DNA of 63,998 nucleotides, the filler included, from Candidatus Babelota bacterium (lineage in GTDB: Bacteria > JAGOBX01), in assembly GCA_017999075.1 (NCBI GenBank). It is 7 parts of 7 records of this genome, joined end to end, with 100 filler letters (N's around TTAATTAATTAA, not from the genome) between each part and the next. Parts side by side here need not be neighbours in the genome. Positions count along the whole stretch, not along the records: positions 28,084 to 37,239 come from JAGOBX010000113.1; 6 more parts are not named here. One strand, given 5' to 3'. The notes under the pieces were generated by a model, which was given only the letters and a program-made list of their open reading frames with translations, did no database searches and was not told where the DNA came from. Positions 9,279 to 39,949 of this stretch are shown here, piece by piece. Within the stretch, counting starts at the first letter, position 1. Every line of letters starts with the position of its first letter. Both the position numbers and the translations under genes were made by a program.

Positions 9279-9378
9279 NNNNNNNNNNNNNNNNNNNNNN
9301 NNNNNNNNNNNNNNNNNNNNNNTTAATTAATTAANNNNNNNNNNNNNNNNNNNNNNNNNNNNNNNNNNNNNNNNNNNN
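9279..9378. other. Artificial contig linker
   Basis: N44-TTAATTAATTAA-N44, stops in all six frames. Confidence 0.99.
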
Positions 9379-28083: not shown

Positions 28084-28889
28084 GAAAGTACTATTTCATT
28101 ACAATGAGACATTTCAAGATGGCGTTTGAATTTCGAATCAAATATCTCGGCGCAGGAATAAATATGTTTATTCAACGAATCAATTGTCATTATTGTCATT
28201 ACAGTCCGAGAATCTATTTCCTGCGGAGAAGCAGAAAATGAAGTATCTGCAAGGACAAGAATTCTACTTGCGGTTTTTATATTAGCTCTCAGAAGCGAAG
28301 CTTCTTCAACAAAATCTCCGTATATATAATGTAAATCCCTTAATTCAGGTTCTGATTTTAACGTTGAAATATCGTTCTGATCACGCATATTAATTAATAC
28401 AACTTTATCTGATGTATACGACGGATTCATCTTCAGTATTTCAACTAAAAATTCAAACATGCCTTCACGCCATCCGCATATAATAAAATGATCTTTTAAA
28501 TTTTGAAGTCCAGTCAAGCCGCGTCCCTCCTTTAATTGTTTTTCTACCAATAATGTCGTTATAGAACCGGTAACGACTCCGACTAACCCTACCCCTATTA
28601 TTAAGACGAATATATCTAAAAATCTCCCAAGCGGAGTTTTGGGGCTTATATCACCGTAACCGCAAGTTGAAACTGTTACTACTGTCCAGTATAAAGAATC
28701 TAAAAAAGAACCGTAACCATCATTATATTTTCTTTCAATATAATAAAATATAACAGCTACCGCAAAAATAAATACTAATGCCATAGTGAATATTTTTGCA
28801 TTCTTATTGGAAGTGAAAAAATATATGATATTCTTATATATCTTAATGATTATTTTTTTTATAAATTTCAAAATATTCATTTTTATCAA
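28084..28889 (-). CDS. Two-TM potassium channel with RCK/TrkA-N domain (3' end cut)
   Basis: YWTVVTVSTCGYGDISP pore; HFIICGW and GDFVEEASLLRANI RCK motifs. Confidence 0.9.
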
Positions 28890-30976
28890 GATAAAATATT
28901 GTCTATTAAAGAATAAGATTTATTTTTTTCAAAAACTATATTTTTATTGGTTCCTTCGACTTTTTCTCTTTCACTCAAATATGGTAAAAATAACAAGTTA
29001 TTCAATATTACAAGCATTTCATTAATAAATAATTCCGTATTCTGTATTCTGTAAACGTTTATTTCTTCTTTTGAAATATAATTGTCTGCATAAATAAATC
29101 CAAAAAACTTATCGTGAAATTTAAGCTGAGACACAATAAAATCACTTGATTCGAATTTTGCTTTTAATCCGTTTATTATTTCATCTGTCATCAAATTGGT
29201 ATTCGGAAATTTCATACTCATTCCATGTTTTGCAAAATTTGATTCAAGATTATTTTTTACTTTCTCAGCATCAAATTCAACTGTTTTAGCCAATTTTTCA
29301 AAACTATTGCCGTAATAAGGCAGTTTATCATACATCTGCAATGCATCCGAAAGTTTAGGATTAAATTTATAATATTCTTCTTTATTTGAAAATTTTTTTA
29401 TAAGTTCTTCTCTGGTGTTGGCGCCTATAGCTGAAAAACAATAAAATTTTCCGGTCTCAGAATTCTTTATAAAAATAGCAGCCCTGTCATATTTCAGATA
29501 AATTTTACTTGTCAATGATATTATTATATAATTAAAATGTTTTTCTATATCGTAGGTTTGCTGAAAATGAGAATATACTGTATTTAATGTTTCTATTCTA
29601 TTAATATACAGGTACAATCTGTCAAAACTGTCATTTAATTTTTTTATAAGATATTCATATGACCGTGTCAGCATATTTATTTCATCATCGGTTGCTGACA
29701 ATTTCTTAAAAGGATCTGTATCGTCAAAAGCGATATTTCGTTTAGCTTTAAAAGAAATAATATTTTCTTTAAGCTCACTGGATAAATGCACTATTCTACG
29801 CAGCATCAATCCGTCAAGATAAAAATTTAAAACTATTATCGTTACTATTACTGTCAAAATTGATATTCCAACTATAAATGCCTCAAGTAAATGAAGTCCT
29901 TTACTTAAATTTTTCAAACTATATAATATTAAATAATTATTTGATGTCTTTATAAACAGGATTTCCTGTTCATCTATACTTACTTTTTTGATTTTATCAA
30001 AATCATTTGATATTATATTAAAATCAGATTGAAAATGAAAATACTCAAATAATTCTGAATTTAACAGTCCTGATATAAAACTAAAACTTCCTGATGAAAT
30101 TTGTCTCCAATCTGTTTTTGCAATTAATCCGTTAAAAAATTTATTATCAACATTATCAATATTATTAAAAAATTCTGTATCAGAAACAGAAGATTTACTC
30201 AATTTTTCAAATTCGGCAATCGTAGATTTTCTGTTATTTATAAACTTCCATTCAATTATTTTTTTCAAATCACCAAAATTGTTATATCTTACTTTTTCAA
30301 TGTTATCCGGTGAAATACTGGTTATTAATTCCTTATATTTATTTAACTCCGTAAGCTGGACAGTATCAGATAAAGACTGAATTCTTAAAATTGATGGTTC
30401 ATTATTAAAAATATTCTTTATATCAGAACCTGATTCTATGCTTGATTTAATCAATTTTAAATATTTAATTTCATTGTTAAGTAAGGTGTCAGCCTGATAA
30501 TTAAATATGATATATCCTAAACTCAATATAACTATTAAAGTGAATGAACTCAACCCTGCAAAAAATTTTTGTTTCAACTGGCTTTGAGTTTCTTTTGTAA
30601 ATTTCAACAATCTGAATATTCTCAGCGCTCTTGTAAATCTTAACAGTTTAACGCTGCGCATACTTTTTATCGCTGGAGTCAATATAGGCAGAGATGATAA
30701 AAAATCTATCCATCCGTAATCAAATAAAAAATATTTCCATTTTCCAATCCAGAATTTAATTAGAAATTCTAATGTGAATATGACCAAAAAAATTATATCA
30801 GCTTTTTCAAAAAATAAATCCCATCTATTTGAAAAATCAACAAGTTGTGGAACCAATAAACTTATAACCGACAACATAACGCACAGCATTATGGCTGTAT
30901 TAAAAATTTTGTTATTAACAACTATACGAAAAAATTCAAATGTGGATTTATATAATTTTGTTAATTTAGAATACAT
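28886..30976 (-). CDS. Voltage-sensor (S1-S4) / extracytoplasmic domain / HAMP / GAF membrane protein
   Basis: S2 IFTLEFLIK, S3 WIDFLSSLP, S4 RSVKLLRFTRALRIFRLLK; two more TMs around about 200 aa; DDEINMLTRSY HAMP; YDRAAIF...GFIYADN GAF. Confidence 0.75.
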   Translation of the reverse strand: MYSKLTKLYKSTFEFFRIVVNNKIFNTAIMLCVMLSVISLLVPQLVDFSNRWDLFFEKADIIFLVIFTLEFLIKFWIGKWKYFLFDYGWIDFLSSLPILTPAIKSMRSVKLLRFTRALRIFRLLKFTKETQSQLKQKFFAGLSSFTLIVILSLGYIIFNYQADTLLNNEIKYLKLIKSSIESGSDIKNIFNNEPSILRIQSLSDTVQLTELNKYKELITSISPDNIEKVRYNNFGDLKKIIEWKFINNRKSTIAEFEKLSKSSVSDTEFFNNIDNVDNKFFNGLIAKTDWRQISSGSFSFISGLLNSELFEYFHFQSDFNIISNDFDKIKKVSIDEQEILFIKTSNNYLILYSLKNLSKGLHLLEAFIVGISILTVIVTIIVLNFYLDGLMLRRIVHLSSELKENIISFKAKRNIAFDDTDPFKKLSATDDEINMLTRSYEYLIKKLNDSFDRLYLYINRIETLNTVYSHFQQTYDIEKHFNYIIISLTSKIYLKYDRAAIFIKNSETGKFYCFSAIGANTREELIKKFSNKEEYYKFNPKLSDALQMYDKLPYYGNSFEKLAKTVEFDAEKVKNNLESNFAKHGMSMKFPNTNLMTDEIINGLKAKFESSDFIVSQLKFHDKFFGFIYADNYISKEEINVYRIQNTELFINEMLVILNNLLFLPYLSEREKVEGTNKNIVFEKNKSYSLIDNILS

Positions 30977-31046
30977 ATATTATTACCGTATTTTAAAAAT
31001 TTAATTTTAAAAATATTTTGTTTACTTATAATTTTATAAAAAAAGT

Positions 31047-31074
31047 ATTATACTACAATTTATTTTTCTGTCAA
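31047..31074 (-). promoter_or_regulatory. Sigma70-type promoter for the voltage-sensor/K+ channel operon
   Basis: Minus strand TTGACA-N16-TATAAT. Confidence 0.7.
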
Positions 31075-31088
31075 ACTTAATGATTTTA

Positions 31089-31129
31089 TTTTTTTGTGAT
31101 TTTTTTCAGTGAAAAAAATCACAAAAAAA
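31089..31129. promoter_or_regulatory. Perfect inverted repeat between divergent genes
   Basis: 20-bp arms T7GTGAT7CA-G-TGA7TCACA7. Confidence 0.55.
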
Positions 31130-31215
31130 ACACTTGTAATAATTTTGTTTATATAATATATTTTAATTATAGATATATAATTAAATTTTAAATAAAATTC
31201 AGGGGTGAGATAATT

Positions 31216-33756
31216 ATGGAAAAAGTTAAAAAAAATATATTAACTTTTGGAGTTATTGCTTTGCTTGCTATATGTTCTGCGCTGTTAATTACATGCGGAG
31301 ACAGTAATAATAGTTCTGCAAGTAACACTCTCCATGCTCCGGCTCTTAATTCAATTTCTGTAAACGACGGATATTCTAATAATAAACTTTCCTCTGTTGA
31401 TCCAGGTATGTATATAAATTTACAATATGCAACTGAATTTGATCCTTCTGTAGAAACAGGAGATACATTGACTCTCATTCAATCATCATTTCCTGACACA
31501 GGCTCCATCCCTTTATCATTTTATTTAATTGATGCTGCTGCTTATAAAAACGATACTCAAGCCGAACAAATAACAGGATTAGACACAAACTATTTTTCAG
31601 TATTACTTGGTTCAAGTTTTTATAATTATCAAGGCGGAGAAGTTGATTTAGTTATACCTGAAGACGTTCCAACAGGATATTACAGAATAGTATCATTCAT
31701 AGATCCGAATAACAATTACAATATAGTAAACAGCAACGGAGTAAAAACAAGTTATATGTCAGATTCATTTTTAGTTACCAATGCTGATTCAAGCTGGGTT
31801 GAAATTACAAGTTTTAATGCAACTTCCAAAGTAGCAGTTTATTCTGATTCAGACTGGTTAAGAAATGGCAAACCATATTTATATGATACTCAAGTTATAG
31901 CTCAAACAATATTGCTGGATAATACAAACGGAGATACTGATTATAATGCTAATGACTCTTCCACGTGGACATACGCTACTACATTTGACACAAAAATCAT
32001 AAACCGTTCCGGACATATTCAGGTTAATTTTGATTTAACCCTGAGAGGAAAAATTGCAAAGGTTACAGATACCACTTATGTTTCATTTTATCTCAGCACC
32101 TGGCAGGAAAAAGGCGCGGCAGCAGGAGTTGACAGCGCAACTTACTGGGCCAATTTAGGGCTGAATCAGGCTGCATTAAACTGGTTCAATAACAGTATGC
32201 CGGCAGATTATTATGTAACTCCGACAAACCTGTGGCAGGAACTTAAAGTTCTGTATAAAGGCGATTCAGTTACTCCTGACAGATTTGACTGGTATTTCCC
32301 TGTTGCTGCAGGATCAGACAGCAAATATATTTCAGATACAACAGTTGAACCTCCAGCAAACATTTTAGCAGATGATATTGATACCTGGCTTGTTGGAAGC
32401 ACAATTCATTATAAATATTATGATCGGGGAAGAGGCAGAACTCAAGTAAGAAATTCATTCACTCTTGACTTATGGATTCCTGACACTACTGCAAGGATGA
32501 TAGATTACATTGATTCATTATGCGGAAAATCCGTATGGAGACTTGTAATGTATGTCGAAAATAGGGAAGCTGGAATATTTGAAGACGATTGGAGCGTAAT
32601 AGAACAGTTCCGCGCAGAAGATTATGTCAGGTTCGTAAAAATCAGGCATGATGATTTATTCCCTGACGGAACCAGGGCGCCTAAATACGCAGGTTCAAAC
32701 TGGTGGAAGTTCAATAATTATAAAGCTGGCATTGACAGAAATGATTATACTGGATCAGGCGGCGGTTTCGGATGCAAATTTGCAAATTATGATGAAATAT
32801 ATGCTGCTGCAGGTTATGACGGAGGTTTTATTGAAGAAGACAATGTTCAATACATAGACGTTACAGTATTTGGTTTCAACATTCCTATTTTAGATGTGAA
32901 AAATGTGTATAAAGGCATAGCTTATGATATTCAAAAAAGTTACCGCCAATTTTATTACAAAGTAGGTTACTGGGTTTTATTTTCAAAATACGATGAACTC
33001 GGAACACAGGAAATAGTTGGTTTAAATGCTGATCCTTTTGTTGAATGGTCAAAAGAAATAGCTAAAAAAGAAAAAACATTTATGGTGGGTCCTGTTCCAG
33101 TAACTCCTGCAGTATCTGTAAGCGTAAATGTAGGAATTTCTCTTGCAAAAGGACTTATGAAAATGAATACTGCACGTTGGAGCGCAGGTTTGGGCGGAAT
33201 AAATGTAGTAGCTGACGCATGGGCTTTAGACGGATTATCTGTCCAGTCAGCAGGAAGCGATTTTGTAGCTATTGCAGGAAAAATGACTCCGTATATAGCT
33301 TTAGTCGCAGGAGCCGAACTTGCTGTTGGCGGCGGATGTTTAAAAGCTGGAGTTTACTGTAATCTTGAACTTCTAAGATATGATATGCCTATTTATTTAG
33401 GATCATACGCAGAAGCTGTTGTGAACGGCTCTATAGTTGATGGAGACAATACCCTTGAACTATGGCAGAATTCAAATAACCGTTATATAAAATCAGGTCA
33501 ATTTTTCAGAGTTGATTTAAAACAATCTACATTAAGCGGAGCTCTTGGATTATTCGCTGAAGTAGGAGTTCCTTATCCGAGATTTTGCTGGTCATGCTGG
33601 CGTGCATGGAAATGCGATATATGTGTTCCTTATCCTTGCGGTATAAATTGGGCTACTGCAAGATATGAACTTCCGATAGTAAGCTGGACAGGATTATGGA
33701 CAAATGCAGTTTTATTCAACCAGACATTCGGAAACAAAAGATATGCTTGTTTTTAA
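31216..33756 (+). CDS. Large lipoprotein with beta-rich C-terminal domain and Cys/Trp-rich tail
   Basis: Lipobox LLITC; Ig/CARDB-like IPEDVPTGYYRIVSFID; FMVGPVPVT amphipathic strands; strong RBS. Confidence 0.75.
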   Translation: MEKVKKNILTFGVIALLAICSALLITCGDSNNSSASNTLHAPALNSISVNDGYSNNKLSSVDPGMYINLQYATEFDPSVETGDTLTLIQSSFPDTGSIPLSFYLIDAAAYKNDTQAEQITGLDTNYFSVLLGSSFYNYQGGEVDLVIPEDVPTGYYRIVSFIDPNNNYNIVNSNGVKTSYMSDSFLVTNADSSWVEITSFNATSKVAVYSDSDWLRNGKPYLYDTQVIAQTILLDNTNGDTDYNANDSSTWTYATTFDTKIINRSGHIQVNFDLTLRGKIAKVTDTTYVSFYLSTWQEKGAAAGVDSATYWANLGLNQAALNWFNNSMPADYYVTPTNLWQELKVLYKGDSVTPDRFDWYFPVAAGSDSKYISDTTVEPPANILADDIDTWLVGSTIHYKYYDRGRGRTQVRNSFTLDLWIPDTTARMIDYIDSLCGKSVWRLVMYVENREAGIFEDDWSVIEQFRAEDYVRFVKIRHDDLFPDGTRAPKYAGSNWWKFNNYKAGIDRNDYTGSGGGFGCKFANYDEIYAAAGYDGGFIEEDNVQYIDVTVFGFNIPILDVKNVYKGIAYDIQKSYRQFYYKVGYWVLFSKYDELGTQEIVGLNADPFVEWSKEIAKKEKTFMVGPVPVTPAVSVSVNVGISLAKGLMKMNTARWSAGLGGINVVADAWALDGLSVQSAGSDFVAIAGKMTPYIALVAGAELAVGGGCLKAGVYCNLELLRYDMPIYLGSYAEAVVNGSIVDGDNTLELWQNSNNRYIKSGQFFRVDLKQSTLSGALGLFAEVGVPYPRFCWSCWRAWKCDICVPYPCGINWATARYELPIVSWTGLWTNAVLFNQTFGNKRYACF

Positions 33757-33918
33757 CGGTTTAATTTAATAAGAATAGGATCTGACTAATAAGTTGTTTT
33801 TTGAAATAGGGGCACAATTAAGTTGAAAAAGTAATAAACTCCTGGTTTGAGGTGCTTTTTCAACTTATTAGTCGCCGCTATTTTATTAATTGATTTTGTT
33901 AAATATTCATAATATTAT

Positions 33919-33960
33919 AAAACTCGAAAATGTTAAAAATCAGGCATTTTCGAGTTTTTT
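33919..33960 (+). terminator. Probable intrinsic terminator
   Basis: AAAACTCGAAAATG / CATTTTCGAGTTTT stem followed by a T-run. Confidence 0.6.
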
Positions 33961-33999
33961 TATTTATGATTTTAAATTTACAGTTTACAGGAATATTTT

Positions 34000-35952
34000 A
34001 TGAACAACTCAAAAAAAATAATTTTATATATTTTATTTTTTGCAGCAGTATTTACATTAAGTTATATTTATTTTTCAAACAAAAAAAATATTTCAGGAAT
34101 ATGGAATATAGGCGATAAAATGCGTTTTGAATTAGATATGGTTACAAAAACATTCATATCCTCAGGCGCTGTAGGTTTAAATTCTCTTGAAAACAGATCT
34201 TTAACTAATATTAAATCAAATATTCTTATAAAAATAATAGAAATCGGAGATACTGAAGTATATGCAAAAGGTATGATTGAAAATTTTCGGCAGGAAACAA
34301 ACGGGCAAAAAATTGATATTGAATTTTATAATCTTCCTTTTCTTATCAAATTTCACAAAAACGGACAAATAATAAAAATCACACATTCTAAATTATTGAA
34401 TTATGACAAAAAGTTTTTGATTGAAGCTTTAATATACAATTTACAATTCACGTATTATCCTCAAAAAAAATCATGGGGAGCTATTGAAAAAACAATTACT
34501 GATTCTTATAAAACAGAATATTTTTTTGATGAAAAACAGAATATTCTAACCCGGAATATTTTAAGTTACTCGCAATCAGATAATGAACAACTTATTCCAG
34601 GATCAATTCCGAGAATAAATAAAGGAATAGGAAAAATTGTTCTGCCTAAAAAAAAATCATGGTTTGAATCAATAGAGTTCGAAATAAATCTTGACTTGTA
34701 CAAAGATAAATCAAAAGTGTTCGAAAGTGAAACAAAATTTACTGCAAAATATTCGTCTGCCCCGTCAAAACATAGTTTTTGGGATTCTACAGACGATAAA
34801 AATAAAATTTTTGAATCTCTTGAAAACCCATTTAAAAAAACTGAATTATCAGAAGACGAAAAAAAAGTCGAAGAAATTCTCGATAAAGAACAATATATAA
34901 ATCCTAAAGTTGTGGATGATGCTCTGGAGCAGGTAAAAAAACAAAACATAAAGTTTGAAGTATTGATGGAAGCATATATATCTAAATATTTCGGCGGATC
35001 AAATAATACTCAGGAATTAAAAGAACTTTTTGATATACTTGTTGGTTATCTGAAAAAAAATCCCGATGAATGTTCAAAAATTATTGAGCTGATCAGAATG
35101 AACAAACTTCCTGAAAAAGGAAGCGGATTTTTGTTTCTGCTTCTTGAAAAAACAGCTCACTTGAAAGCTCAGGAATCATTGATTTCAATACTTGAACGAT
35201 CATCTGAATTTTCAAGATTATCATTAGTAAGAGCATCCGGAGCTCTAATGGGAATCCCTCATATTAATTCTTCATTATTTGACAAATTGATTTTTTTAGA
35301 ACAATCAGGATCAATCGCAGAAGTGGACGGCAGAAATTCTGCTCTTCTTACAATAGGTTCTTTAGGAAACATTTCCGTAAACCCAAATATAAAAACAAAA
35401 TCGGAAAATCATCTGCGCGCCAAACTTCTTGGAGTTCAAAATGTAAATGAAATTTCTAATGCGGTAATACTTGACGCAGCATCAAATACAGGCAATCCAA
35501 ATCTTATTCCTGAACTGGAAAAATTTATTTTCACCTCAAAACATGAAATAGTAAAAAATCATGCTGTTACAGCTCTTATGCATATGCCGGAAAAAGATGC
35601 AAATCCTGTTATAATTAAAATATTAAAATCAAACGATATGTCTAACATAGGCAGCGCAGTAAAAGTTTTAAACAAAAGAGAAAACTTTAACCGTTCAAAA
35701 AAAATCGATCCGGAAATAAATAAAATATTGCTTGATAAATTTCCTTATACGCAAAATTCTATTGAGCTGAGGAAAGAAATGGCAGAATATTTGTCTATCA
35801 GTGAAACAAATCATCCTCTTTTATTAAAAACTGCTGACAACAAAAAAGAAAATTGGGAAATAAGAAAAATAATTTATGAAAAAATACCTGTAGGAAAAGA
35901 ACGGGTTATTGAAAGAGTAAAACCAGGCAGCGGTTTAAAAAGAAAACGATAA
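34000..35952 (+). CDS. Membrane-anchored HEAT-repeat protein with vitellogenin-N/MTP-like organisation
   Basis: N-terminal TM, beta-rich first half, then KAQESLISIL, ALLTIGSL, LDAASNTGNP helical repeats. Confidence 0.6.
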   Translation: MNNSKKIILYILFFAAVFTLSYIYFSNKKNISGIWNIGDKMRFELDMVTKTFISSGAVGLNSLENRSLTNIKSNILIKIIEIGDTEVYAKGMIENFRQETNGQKIDIEFYNLPFLIKFHKNGQIIKITHSKLLNYDKKFLIEALIYNLQFTYYPQKKSWGAIEKTITDSYKTEYFFDEKQNILTRNILSYSQSDNEQLIPGSIPRINKGIGKIVLPKKKSWFESIEFEINLDLYKDKSKVFESETKFTAKYSSAPSKHSFWDSTDDKNKIFESLENPFKKTELSEDEKKVEEILDKEQYINPKVVDDALEQVKKQNIKFEVLMEAYISKYFGGSNNTQELKELFDILVGYLKKNPDECSKIIELIRMNKLPEKGSGFLFLLLEKTAHLKAQESLISILERSSEFSRLSLVRASGALMGIPHINSSLFDKLIFLEQSGSIAEVDGRNSALLTIGSLGNISVNPNIKTKSENHLRAKLLGVQNVNEISNAVILDAASNTGNPNLIPELEKFIFTSKHEIVKNHAVTALMHMPEKDANPVIIKILKSNDMSNIGSAVKVLNKRENFNRSKKIDPEINKILLDKFPYTQNSIELRKEMAEYLSISETNHPLLLKTADNKKENWEIRKIIYEKIPVGKERVIERVKPGSGLKRKR

Positions 35953-35960
35953 TATAATTT

Positions 35961-37115
35961 ATGATTGCTGAAAAATCAGATAAAGGCGATATCCCTGAAA
36001 TAAAAAATCAACCAGATTTATACGGAAATTATATCGAAAATCTTTGTGGCAATACAAATGAATTTAATCTTTCAAAAGTATTTCATTTCATACTTGTTAT
36101 TTTTTTCTATATATTTTCAAGGCATCTTCTTCAATTACTTTTTAACGGTTTTTCAAGTGAGACAATCAACTTTTTATTTTCTTTCAATTTAAACCACAAT
36201 ATATTCCTTATAATATTAAATTTCCTTATTGCAGAAATATTATTATTAAAAATATTTATCAACAAAACATATTATATTATTTCAAAATTTTCATTATTAA
36301 GTATAAGTCTGATTTTTTTACAACCAATATTTTTTAATTTTTTTAAAATTTTTCCGCAAATCAATTACTTTTCTGATATTAAATTCATAAATTATAATTC
36401 GTGCATACTTATATTGTTTGTCATTTACATATATTTTTTTAAAATTAATAAAACCCAAAGCTTTAATAAAAAAAAAATTATGTTTTTCATTAATTATTCA
36501 ATAATTTTAATAATAGGAATTCTTATAGGAATCCATATCCCTAAAAGTTTCGACAAATTTCCAAACATTTTAATTGTCAACTCTGAATTTATATTCAATT
36601 TTATTTTTGCAATAAGCGCTGTTTTTTTTTATACGGTGTTTTCAGAGGAAACAACAAAAAAATTTTATTCAGGAAACTTTAATGTTTTTTATTCAGATTT
36701 CAGAATTTATATTTTAATTTTAATGTCATATTGTTCATTTTTGATAAACTTCCAATTTTTTTTATGCATTTCAGCAATGCAGGGAATAATTATAATTTCA
36801 TATTTTCCGCCTTTCTTCCTTATAAATATAAATTTTTTCAAACAATTATTTTCAATATTAAAAATTCTTTTTTTATTAATTCTCGGTTTTTCAATTTCAA
36901 ATTTTCATATAATGCTTTTCCCTGAAAAAATAATTCTAATAATTTCTATTTCAGGAGTAGTATTAGCTGCGCTAAGTGAAATTTCAAAAAGTCAAAATAC
37001 AAATTTGAATAAAAAAACATCATCATTTTTTATACAATTTTTATTTATGACAATTTTATCAGGGTTATTATTTTACGTTTTCAAATATTATAATCTTAAA
37101 ATCTTATTTATTTAA
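35961..37115 (+). CDS. Hypothetical polytopic membrane protein
   Basis: 384-aa ORF with many hydrophobic segments, directly after the previous gene. Confidence 0.55.
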   Translation: MIAEKSDKGDIPEIKNQPDLYGNYIENLCGNTNEFNLSKVFHFILVIFFYIFSRHLLQLLFNGFSSETINFLFSFNLNHNIFLIILNFLIAEILLLKIFINKTYYIISKFSLLSISLIFLQPIFFNFFKIFPQINYFSDIKFINYNSCILILFVIYIYFFKINKTQSFNKKKIMFFINYSIILIIGILIGIHIPKSFDKFPNILIVNSEFIFNFIFAISAVFFYTVFSEETTKKFYSGNFNVFYSDFRIYILILMSYCSFLINFQFFLCISAMQGIIIISYFPPFFLININFFKQLFSILKILFLLILGFSISNFHIMLFPEKIILIISISGVVLAALSEISKSQNTNLNKKTSSFFIQFLFMTILSGLLFYVFKYYNLKILFI

Positions 37116-37239
37116 AATATGGAATTAAATATAAAAAAAAATCTGATAAAAATTTTTGAATTTCTTGAAAAAGAAAATTATCCGGTTTTATATTCGGTCA
37201 TAACTTTTATTTTCGCTATAATTTTAAGAAATATTATAG

Positions 37240-37339: not shown

Positions 37340-39949
37340 GAATATAAAGAAGACGGTAATATTTATTTCTATAATGAGAAGGGTAAAGTTATTAAAACAC
37401 TTGAAAAGGGTTTTAAAAAAGGCGTGTTATATGTTCAGGACGGCGGTCAGGTAATTTTTACGAATAATAGCGAAGCGGAAATTTTATGGAATACCGATAT
37501 GCAAAAGATGGAAGATACTAAACGAAGAATTTTCGGACCGCGCGGAATGGGACTTTATTTAGAAGCAGGCGATGCAATGTATCCTGGCGATGAATTGCCA
37601 AGCGTATGGGGCGATGTAGGCGATGCATTAGATAAAGGCAAACCGATTAACAAAGGCAAGAGCCGTTTGCATTTCCAGATGGACGGAAACTTGGTAATGA
37701 AATCATATTATGACGAAGCCAAACAACGAGATGCAGATGGTAATTCGGCTGTAAGTTCAACTGAAATTTCGTATTGGGAAACCAAAACAGCAGGCAGAGG
37801 CGCTAAAGTAGTAATTATGAAAAACGGTAATCTTGTGGTTGTTGATAAGAATAATACTATTATCTGGCAGGCAAATACATCCGGCTATCCACACGCATTG
37901 TTCACAATCACTGACAAGGGTTCAATATTAATGCGTGATTTTCTAGGAAATATGCTTGCATCAGGAAAATATCCTACAATTGTTGTGGATAAAAATCAAC
38001 CTGCAGAAAAACCTTCGGATTTAGAAAAAGCAATTGATACTGCGAAACAAATAAAAGAAGCGGCTATGCTGATTAAAGAATCTTGGAAAAGTCCGGAAGG
38101 AACTGCAAAAGCCATTGTTGCAATATATGGTCAGAAAAATAATGCACTGCCGCCTGCTCCTGAATTTAAAGTTGTAACAAGAGATGTATCGGAAGAATTA
38201 CTGCCGTTAAAGGAAACAACTCCTCGTCAGGGCGATTATTATAAATTAACGCCAAAACAGGAAAAAGCTAAACAGGCGGCAATTGATGCGGTTAATGCGA
38301 TATCTTCGCTTGAGCCAATGCTTATTATGACTTCGGATAAAGAAAAAATAGCAAACGCTAAAAAACTTGTTGACGCTGCAATAGCCGAAGGAGTAAAAGA
38401 ATCTGAAATTTCTTATTCGATTAAGGCAATACTTGATTCGCTTGAAAAAGCGGTTGTTCAACTTGAAACTTACCTCGAAGAAGAATCAAAGAAAACGCCG
38501 CTTCCGGCTGAATTGAAAACTGATAAGAAATATTATTTAAAAACTAAACACAGCAATATGTATTTGCGCGTGAGTGATAAAAATGTAGTTCAATCGTATT
38601 TTCCGGATAACGGCACACCAGGTAATGAATATAAATTTGTTCTTGAAAGCGACGGTAACGGATATTTCTGGTTGAGAAACGCTCATGAAAACGCGTATAT
38701 AGGTGTTTTAAATATAAGCAGTAAATCTGCTGGCGCAGAAATGAATTTGTGGAATAAAGAAGATTCTGATAATTATAAATGGAGCGTTATTTCTGCAGGG
38801 AACGGATATTATAAATTGAAAATGAAACACAGTAATTTGTTTATGAATGTATCAGGAGGAAATTCAAAAGACGGATCAAAAGTTGTGCAGTGGTCTGCGG
38901 ACGGTTCAGGTAATAACGAGCAGTTTATGTTTGAAGATGCGGAAGTATCGAAGACAACAACCGCTCCGGTTCCAACTCCAACCCCTTTACCAACATCTGC
39001 GCCTGCACCAAAACCGACTGCTTCAGCAGCAAGTTCGGCAACGCCTGTAAATCTTGCGCTCGGCAAAACAGCGACTTCGAGTTCGAACGAAAATTCTGTT
39101 AATACAGCGGACAAAGCGTTTGATGGAAATACAGGCACGCGCTGGGCGTCAATCGGCGGCAGAGATCCGCAATGGTTAATGGTTGATTTGGGTGCAGAAG
39201 CTGTTATAAGTAAAGTGTCGTTGTCGTGGGAAGCGGCAGCCGGAAAAAATTATCAAATTCAGGTATCTAATGACGGAAATAATTGGACTGATGTTGCGTC
39301 TGTAAATGACGGAACAAGCAATCATAAACGCGAATTGACCATCAATAACGCGAAAGGCAGATATGTCCGTATGTATGGAACACAGCGCGCAAATAGCTGG
39401 TATGGCTATTCAATCTGGGAATTTGAAATTTGGGGAGTTTTTACTGGGGTTGCTCAAGAATCATCCAAATCCTCACCTCAAACACCTGCGCAAACATCGG
39501 CTGATGAAGGTAAACCTGTAAATGGAAATTATTATAAAATTCAGGCGAAACACAGTGGACTACTAATTAGTGTGGATAATTCAGCAACAAATAACGGAGC
39601 GAATGTTTCGCAGCAGCCGGACAATAATCTGAATTCACAAATCTGGAAACTCGAAGATATGGGCAGCGGCTATTTTAAAATTGTTAATAAAAACAGCGGC
39701 AAATGTCTTGATGTTGCCGGCGGTTCAAGAAACGATGGCGGTAATATTCATCAATGGGATTATGCAAACGGCGATAATCAGGTATGGAAATTTGAAGAAG
39801 CCGGCGCTGGTTATTATAAAATAATCCCTAAGCATATAAATAAAACAGTAGATGTTTCTGGTGGCAGTAAAAACATAGGCGCCAATATTCAGCAGTGGTC
39901 GCATAATACAGGCGATGGTCAGAAATGGAAACTGATAGAGGTGAAATAA
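37340..39949 (+). CDS. Multi-lectin protein (5' cut): bulb-type lectin, helical spacer, ricin-B, PT linker, F5/8C (CBM32), ricin-B
   Basis: FQMDGNLV and GNLVVVD..IWQ; QxW repeats; NLALGK..AFDGNTGTRW..YSIWEFEI; frame open from contig start. Confidence 0.85.
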   Translation, partial: EYKEDGNIYFYNEKGKVIKTLEKGFKKGVLYVQDGGQVIFTNNSEAEILWNTDMQKMEDTKRRIFGPRGMGLYLEAGDAMYPGDELPSVWGDVGDALDKGKPINKGKSRLHFQMDGNLVMKSYYDEAKQRDADGNSAVSSTEISYWETKTAGRGAKVVIMKNGNLVVVDKNNTIIWQANTSGYPHALFTITDKGSILMRDFLGNMLASGKYPTIVVDKNQPAEKPSDLEKAIDTAKQIKEAAMLIKESWKSPEGTAKAIVAIYGQKNNALPPAPEFKVVTRDVSEELLPLKETTPRQGDYYKLTPKQEKAKQAAIDAVNAISSLEPMLIMTSDKEKIANAKKLVDAAIAEGVKESEISYSIKAILDSLEKAVVQLETYLEEESKKTPLPAELKTDKKYYLKTKHSNMYLRVSDKNVVQSYFPDNGTPGNEYKFVLESDGNGYFWLRNAHENAYIGVLNISSKSAGAEMNLWNKEDSDNYKWSVISAGNGYYKLKMKHSNLFMNVSGGNSKDGSKVVQWSADGSGNNEQFMFEDAEVSKTTTAPVPTPTPLPTSAPAPKPTASAASSATPVNLALGKTATSSSNENSVNTADKAFDGNTGTRWASIGGRDPQWLMVDLGAEAVISKVSLSWEAAAGKNYQIQVSNDGNNWTDVASVNDGTSNHKRELTINNAKGRYVRMYGTQRANSWYGYSIWEFEIWGVFTGVAQESSKSSPQTPAQTSADEGKPVNGNYYKIQAKHSGLLISVDNSATNNGANVSQQPDNNLNSQIWKLEDMGSGYFKIVNKNSGKCLDVAGGSRNDGGNIHQWDYANGDNQVWKFEEAGAGYYKIIPKHINKTVDVSGGSKNIGANIQQWSHNTGDGQKWKLIEVK

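Follow-up and report, generated by a model that had tools for sequence, protein, structure and literature searches.

A bacterial homologue of the large lipid transfer protein N-terminal module and its conserved beta-domain gene partner

The metagenome-assembled genome (MAG) GCA_017999075.1 of Candidatus Babelota bacterium (lineage JAGOBX01) carries two consecutive plus-strand genes, encoding proteins of 846 aa (31216-33756) and 650 aa (34000-35952), that are the subject of this analysis. Positions refer to the window, by which we mean the whole 63,998-nucleotide stretch that was analysed. We found that the N-terminal module of the large lipid transfer proteins (LLTPs) has a bacterial homologue in the 650-aa protein, and that LLTP-like proteins and proteins with one particular beta domain are encoded as a conserved gene pair. 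A first-pass annotation, made from the sequence alone, had suggested that the two genes resemble a split vitellogenin/MTP-type protein. Both open reading frames (ORFs) lie where it had placed them, and the motifs it quoted are all present (9/9). In the 650-aa protein these are FLIKFHKNGQI (aa 114), LIYNLQF (aa 144), IEKTITDSYKTEY (aa 162), AQESL (aa 390), ALLTIGSL (aa 448) and LDAASNTGNP (aa 491); in the 846-aa protein, FMVGPVPVT (aa 622), TPYIALVAGAELAVG (aa 691) and AGVYCNLELL (aa 711).

The window consists of seven MAG contig pieces of about 9.2 kb each, joined by paired 44-N runs, and gene neighbourhoods are interrupted at 9279, 18651, 27984, 37240, 46421 and 55575. The gene pair lies on a single contig of 9,156 b (28084-37239; G000:C254), and genes past 37239 are not its neighbours. 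The features of the locus are as follows.

31216..33756, plus strand: 846-aa probable lipoprotein, the partner protein (ORF; leader with Cys27; one close homologue)
31216..31296, plus strand: predicted signal peptide and lipobox-like LLITC (Cys27), then a Ser/Asn-rich linker (translation and hydropathy; lipidation presumed)
32956..33753, plus strand: conserved partner beta domain, aa 581-846, with an FxVGPVPV motif, Gly/Ala/Val-rich amphipathic strands and a Cys-rich insert (hhalign; 22-sequence alignment A8)
33919..33958, plus strand: hairpin resembling a terminator, with a 16-pair stem and a T run after it (weak call, consensus scan only)
34000..35952, plus strand: 650-aa LLTP N-module homologue, Vitellogenin_N-like (profile, Pfam on relatives, AlphaFold2, Foldseek, VIA)
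34006..34077, plus strand: predicted N-terminal transmembrane helix or signal anchor, aa 3-26 (AlphaFold2 helix; hydropathy 2.26)
34117..34755, plus strand: predicted beta-barrel, aa 40-252, around helix 135-146 (AlphaFold2; VIA match to the apoB100 barrel)
34852..35910, plus strand: predicted alpha-helical solenoid, aa 285-637, about 20 helices, HEAT-like (AlphaFold2; sub-threshold HEAT_2 and Vitellogenin_N)
35961..37115, plus strand: 384-aa polytopic membrane protein, about 10 hydrophobic segments (ORF, hydropathy; starts 8 b past the 650-aa gene)

Relationships and predicted fold of the 650-aa protein

Yolk formation and the assembly of plasma lipoproteins depend on LLTPs such as vitellogenin, MTP, apoB and the apolipophorins, which have been discussed as an animal superfamily. 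Word-based homologue searches, which were confined to sequences of near length, returned two relatives only for the 650-aa protein (56% and 49% identity), and NCBIfam had no meaningful match for either protein of the pair. At E<=1e-3, an exhaustive profile search from the three closest sequences yielded 253 cluster representatives; most have lengths of 590-710 aa, and many match end to end. When 74 of the 253 were scanned against Pfam, 48 scored at or above the Vitellogenin_N gathering score of 24 bits, seven fell below it, and 19 had HEAT-type matches only, with no Vitellogenin_N match at E<=0.01. The highest Vitellogenin_N scores among these relatives were 89 and 74.6 bits, with coverage of profile positions 78-556 of 590, and the best alignments, running from profile position 71-89 to 527-581 of 590, took in part of the barrel together with the helical domain. 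NCBI labels the relatives only as 'HEAT repeat domain-containing protein'.

We then searched the protein sequences of the PDB with a profile of the 121-sequence family alignment (A2). Lipovitellin (1lsh_A) was matched at E 6.9e-13 in a single stretch, profile 121-585 to chain 78-560, and the large subunit of MTP (8eoj_B/6i7s_G) at E 1.5e-9, again in a single stretch, 136-615 to 120-592. These results bear out the vitellogenin-N/MTP layout that the first-pass annotation had read from motifs, as do the Vitellogenin_N matches in 48 of the 74 relatives and the fold comparisons with Foldseek and VIA.

An AlphaFold2 model built with A2 had a mean predicted local distance difference test score (pLDDT) of 91.3 and a predicted template modelling score (pTM) of 0.74. 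It consists of a helix at 3-26, twelve strands across 40-252 that include the helix 135-146, a linker of lower confidence, and some 20 helices at 285-637, with pLDDT mostly 84-98 in the barrel region. The earlier description of a beta-rich N-terminal half followed by helices thus agrees with the model. The annotation had also proposed comparing the fold with lipovitellin and MTP structures; in a Foldseek search of the PDB, ranks 1-10 were all LLTPs (MTP, lipovitellin, honey-bee vitellogenin and apoB100), at E values from 1.6e-13 for MTP, through 4.7e-13 for lipovitellin, to 1.2e-6. VIA matched the model (31-393) to the isolated apoB100 beta-barrel 9bd8_A with Z 17.6 (root-mean-square deviation, rmsd, 13.6; 282 residues aligned), to lipovitellin with Z 16.8 (485 residues aligned) and to MTP with Z 16.6. 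In the model the helical domain that directly follows the barrel aligns with those of 1lsh_A, 6i7s_G and 9enr_A, and in both Foldseek and VIA only LLTPs matched the barrel and the helical domain together.

The chain stops 13 residues past its last helix, leaving no A or C lipid-pocket sheets in the same polypeptide. Of the 117 family members with a Met start, 106 have a single N-terminal hydrophobic segment and eight a motif resembling a lipobox; given these segments, the family looks signal-anchored and extracytoplasmic. The only cysteine of the 650-aa protein is at aa 358, so that the conserved LLTP barrel disulfide is missing, and in no barrel column does the share of Cys across the 121 sequences exceed 27%.

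Excerpts of a structural account of MTP (PMC6717300) describe the LLTP module as a barrel that encloses a long helix, with a two-layer helical domain coming next, and give the disulfide of the barrel as conserved in LLTPs (Cys174-Cys194 in MTP). In the same excerpts, a 281-aa domain of MTP (604-884), made of two six-stranded sheets that hold lipid, is clamped by the helical domain, and MTP is considered possibly the oldest member of the superfamily. The large subunit of MTP (6I7S, 8EOJ), the smallest LLTP, resembles the 650-aa protein in its order of barrel round a helix and helical domain, and its size is about equal to that of the 650-aa protein and the partner domain combined. The 650-aa protein differs from it in being bacterial, in its N-terminal membrane anchor and in having no A or C sheets, no barrel disulfide and no PDI partner; identity is 12-14% and the domains are oriented differently (TM-score 0.32-0.34). 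Lipovitellin and vitellogenin (1LSH; honey bee 9ENR, 9ENS) are the best sequence-level match of the family, and here the bacterial protein differs in lacking the open beta-sheet, vWD and phosvitin parts. The N-terminal beta-alpha1 region of apoB100 (9BD1, 9BD8, 9E9R) matches over the whole N-module with Z 17.3 in VIA; apoB continues into a huge lipid-wrapping belt, whereas the 650-aa protein has a separate, sometimes giant, partner.

Some of the results speak against this assignment, and several of them would suit a chance resemblance, in which the 650-aa protein is an ordinary HEAT-repeat protein that also has a beta domain of other origin and lies next to a gene unrelated to it. The Pfam matches of the window protein alone are sub-threshold: HEAT_2 reaches 19.8 bits, and Vitellogenin_N (PF01347; cut-off 24 bits) 15.9 bits at E 0.005, aa 404-537 to profile 386-531. 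Designed HEAT proteins (alphaRep) rank above the LLTPs in the PDB search with A2, through a match confined to positions ~498-600, and the A2 profile matches 249 genomes of a 401-genome sample, almost all of them via the HEAT region only. VIA scores helical-repeat proteins that have no relation to LLTPs almost as high as the LLTPs (Z 15-17), through the solenoid alone. Foldseek gives low TM-scores for the LLTP matches (0.24-0.34, with rmsd 21-24 A), which implies that the barrel and helical domain are oriented differently from those of solved LLTPs. Bacterial HEAT proteins (HEAT_2, alphaRep, PBS lyases), however, match only the C-terminal third of the 650-aa protein (aa ~440-640), and unlike the 650-aa family they have neither the N-terminal barrel nor a full-length match to LLTPs. 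The lipovitellin and MTP matches are single stretches that take in the barrel, the barrel by itself matches that of apoB, no other fold matches both domains, and the gene pair recurs across phyla (see below). A chance resemblance is therefore very improbable, being already contradicted by the profile, fold and pairing results.

The partner protein and its pairing across genomes

The 846-aa protein begins with a hydrophobic leader to LLITC(27)GDSNNSS and is, judging by this N-terminus, probably a lipoprotein; the Thr at position -1 of the lipobox-like LLITC27 is unusual. Its one close homologue, and the sole match in the word-based search, was P0005 (68% identity). The ESM Atlas gave a 645-aa 'Lipoprotein' cluster as the best match of the whole protein (score 0.90; Atlas model pLDDT 0.48), and hypothetical proteins at 0.91-0.94, a low recognition, for the partner domain alone. 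In the 22-sequence alignment A8 the domain shows strongly amphipathic strands, with Ile/Val/Leu/Phe on one face and Glu/Arg/Lys/Gly on the other, a pattern as compatible with a sandwich or a barrel as with a sheet that faces lipid.

The length of the partners runs from 339 to >3,300 aa, while the domain measures about 200-260 aa; it is C-terminal in the small ones (339-903 aa) and internal in the giant ones. The giant partners measure 2,467 to >3,331 aa, many being clipped by the 10-kb flank so that these lengths are lower bounds, and one member of their family has only 652 aa. They carry PD40 propellers, PA14, Big_2, aspartyl-protease-like, CarboxypepD_reg and PPC domains (e.g. L009 1403-9973, L013 3-9998) and have in common an unannotated core module of ~650 aa, for which the word-based search found two relatives at near length. 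By hhalign, aa 616-835 of the window lipoprotein align with the C-terminal part of this core module with a probability of 95.8% (E 7.8e-9).

The two genes occur side by side well beyond the window, and the first-pass annotation's expectation that homologues of both would be co-located was confirmed across distant lineages. In a sister genome (G001), a homologue of the 846-aa gene adjoins one of the 650-aa gene on a 22-kb contig, followed by a homologue of the 384-aa membrane gene. Scans of genome contigs with a 12-sequence subfamily alignment (A4) and of metagenomes with another alignment (A10) each sample one subfamily. The genome-contig scan gave 16 loci from Magnetococcales, Beggiatoa-like and Thiotrichales bacteria, Desulfobacterales, Desulfatiglandales, Anaeromyxobacter and Algicola. 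BLAST clustering of all neighbours placed the LLTP-like gene directly beside a gene of one, mostly giant, family at 13 of them. A hidden Markov model (HMM) of the domain, run on six-frame translations, found an adjacent copy in the window, in the sister genome and at 12/16 loci; it found no adjacent copy in L007, L018 and L019, nor in L008, whose upstream DNA is cut off. The metagenome scan returned 13 loci, eight with the domain directly upstream; of the remaining five, three lie at contig ends, one has a frameshift-like weak match and one is without the domain.

Among the matches listed for the 401-genome sample, ten gene copies in seven genomes (G000, which is that of the window, G001, G129, G161, G209, G218 and G084) were full-length; a further 407 matches, all weaker, lay beyond those listed. 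The partner domain was encoded in the gene adjacent to nine of these ten copies, and to seven of the eight outside G000 and G001; seven of the nine paired copies, like the metagenome loci, were outside the training set of the HMM. Scans of whole genomes with A8 found domain copies and LLTP-like genes in equal number, each copy beside such a gene: one of each in G000, G001 and G084 (1/1), two in G161 (2/2) and three in G209 (3/3). Two genomes from the window's own family and class (G002, G003) contained neither an LLTP-like gene nor the domain. Taken from the side of the domain, 11 of the 401 genomes have it: six next to an LLTP-like gene, two as marginal matches (G129, G198) and three as strong matches without such a gene.

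Two observations concern individual loci of this sample. In G108 (L079, G108:C13, 243-5856) each copy of the domain is followed by a gene for a ~390-aa beta-propeller with SBBP/Reg_prop repeats, the two alternating, and these propeller genes may be an alternative pairing for the same partner domain. The LLTP-like gene of G218 (L020/L049, G218:C46:53247-55127) has one in-frame TAG according to the genome search, yet a 630-aa open frame spans the whole match.

A possible envelope complex of the two proteins

The best overall explanation of these findings, which we put at roughly one in two, is that the two proteins form one complex in the cell envelope that handles a hydrophobic ligand. The 650-aa protein would be anchored in the membrane N-terminally and face the periplasm or cell envelope. 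It ends where MTP and vitellogenin start the A and C sheets of their lipid pocket, and its barrel and helical clamp would hold the beta domain of the partner as those of MTP do with its A and C sheets. This complex might then bind or hand on a hydrophobic ligand, e.g. a lipid. We infer both the complex and a lipid function because the LLTP clamp holds beta-sheets, the bacterial protein has none, and the neighbouring gene encodes a domain that is rich in strands and roughly as large as required. That the two proteins physically bind is the better founded part, and we lean towards it; a function with lipid or another hydrophobic ligand is a tentative suggestion and rather doubtful by comparison.

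The first-pass annotation had suggested that the C-terminal strands of the upstream lipoprotein could supply the sheet of the lipid cavity. The strand-rich C-terminus is indeed the conserved part of the protein by hhalign, whereas likeness to LLTP sheets found no backing in sequence matches to Pfam or the PDB, nor in a model of pLDDT 35.9. Several results weigh against a complex built on the LLTP plan, and this is among them. Neither the 846-aa protein or its C-terminal 246 aa nor any of seven further partners matched a Pfam family, those of LLTP sheets included, at E<=0.1, and a sequence search with the partner reached no PDB chain, LLTP chains included, at E<=10. AlphaFold2 modelling of the whole 846-aa protein from a 15-row alignment gave pLDDT 35.9 and pTM 0.31; it is unusable for the N-terminal 560 aa and reaches pLDDT 60-82 only in the long conserved C-terminal hairpins. 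An exhaustive VIA comparison of this poor model gave nothing above the noise mark of Z 8. Small outer-membrane barrels led it, 3dzm_A and PagL (2erv_B) at Z 7.8, while LLTP sheets scored Z 5.4 (bee vitellogenin 907-1199) and 5.0 (apoB 820-1042), all within noise; MTP was not among the best 50 matches, which is uninformative at such a pLDDT.

The arrangement of the genes and their occurrence add to these points. With the partner usually first, the genes run in the opposite order to the domains of LLTPs. A gap of 243 b with the terminator-like hairpin inside parts the two genes in the window, while at most other loci the distance is 0-100 b or the genes overlap; the hairpin is itself a weak call, as the consensus scan gave four sites against 2.4 expected in shuffles. 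One LLTP-like gene, in G129, has only a weak domain match (E 1.1e-4), 26 kb off. Conversely, G253, G094 and G108 have the domain (four copies, two of them in G108) with no LLTP-like gene within the 12-17 kb fetched and none among the matches listed for those genomes, which implies that the partner domain can exist and work alone.

An alternative that draws on several of these results is that the C-terminal domain of the partner is an outer-membrane beta-barrel, an autotransporter-like anchor for the often giant, adhesin-like surface proteins, and that the LLTP-like protein is a periplasmic assembly or tether factor anchored in the inner membrane. By analogy, TamB and TamA, like other lipid-transfer systems of the envelope that are anchored in the inner membrane, might offer a model. 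TamB has an N-terminal signal anchor. The pair further combines a large periplasmic domain of a lipid-transfer-type fold with a dedicated strand-rich partner encoded alongside; the likeness is in how the systems may work, and we saw no relation of sequence or fold between the 650-aa protein and TamB/AsmA. Any lipid role would in this case be a transfer between two membranes and not one of a closed pocket. The best VIA matches of the partner are small barrels and autotransporter beta domains (Z 5.5-7.8, among them the TamAB hybrid barrel at 7.2, OmpW at 6.3 and BrkA, AIDA-I and NalP at 5.5-5.8), and the last residue is aromatic in four of nine small partners, that of the window ending in ...YACF. 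PA14, Big_2, PD40 and PPC domains, as found in the giant partners, are typical of surface or periplasmic proteins, and the LLTP-like protein has a signal anchor as TamB does; the three genomes with the domain alone would also suit an anchor of this kind. Yet every one of those Z values lies under the noise mark and comes from the poor model, and no outer-membrane or autotransporter family of Pfam was matched at E<=0.1. The giant partners moreover have the domain in the interior of the chain, flanked by >1,000 aa at either end, an awkward position for an even-stranded barrel, and the partner in the window looks like a lipoprotein. We regard this arrangement as distinctly less probable than an LLTP-like complex.

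A further possibility needs no lipid. The barrel and helical domains could be a protein-binding platform, as in MTP for nascent apoB, that tethers or folds diverse exported proteins for which the beta domain is a docking tag. The great spread of partner sizes, with unrelated extra domains round one conserved domain, would follow from such a role, as would one-to-one copy number and adjacency. Excerpts of PMC6717300 likewise describe the barrel and helical domains of MTP as its apoB-binding chaperone part. Set against this, every characterised LLTP handles lipid, and the amphipathic strands suit a lipid-facing sheet at least as well as a docking tag. A dock or chaperone of this kind is about as improbable, to our mind, as the outer-membrane anchor.

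No paper on LLTP or Vitellogenin_N homologues in bacteria came up in full-text literature searches. Database annotation of relatives may exist, because the Pfam Vitellogenin_N model already recognises many of them. What is new is a bacterial LLTP N-module, anchored in the membrane and encoded apart from its conserved partner; how it would work, we infer. A bacterial family with the barrel-plus-clamp module makes the origin of the LLTP superfamily testable. Sulfate reducers, magnetotactic bacteria, large sulfur bacteria and uncultured lineages from wastewater may also have, in this pair, a new envelope system that handles lipids or anchors giant surface proteins. The most far-reaching version is a two-gene bacterial counterpart of the animal lipoprotein machinery. 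In it, an LLTP front half anchored in the inner membrane and a separate amphipathic beta-sheet partner, in some cases within a protein of >3,000 aa, would bind or transfer lipid in the envelope, and the LLTP superfamily would descend from such a system. We consider this version speculative and, as a whole, unlikely; if true, a machine regarded as exclusive to animals has a relative in two pieces in bacteria.

Neighbouring genes, composition and occurrence of the locus

The polytopic membrane gene that the first-pass annotation had noted after the pair is present at 35961-37115, and its 384-aa product had no Pfam family match. Clustering of neighbours by BLAST placed a homologue beside the pair only in the sister genome (cluster c5). 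Its membership of the system was therefore not supported, and we ruled it out as a general third component. In the sister genome (L003 10583-12590) a 354-aa ORF without a family and then a radical-SAM gene come after the block of three genes; the window contig stops before the equivalent place.

On the minus strand of the same contig, a 696-aa protein (28886-30976) has an N-terminal Ion_trans domain of the voltage-gated-channel type and a long unannotated C-terminal half, and a second channel-like ORF (28084-28889, minus strand) is interrupted by the contig end. The region of the partner gene (32001-34000) has a G+C content of 0.37, against 0.27-0.29 in its neighbours; this may merely follow from its Gly/Ala/Val-rich composition, and acquisition from elsewhere is also possible.

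A ricin-type lectin gene at 37424-39949 (plus strand) was ruled out as a member of the locus, as it sits on another contig. Its 841-aa multi-lectin product has a B_lectin/putidacin-like N-terminal part, an F5/8 type C domain and several ricin-B trefoils; the NCBIfam LLB_putidacin score of 51.5 bits is far under the cut-off, and G+C is ~40% against 25-30% in the surroundings. No RNA run was listed among those carrying the region of the pair, and the DNA reads that carry it come from wastewater and activated-sludge runs of two studies.

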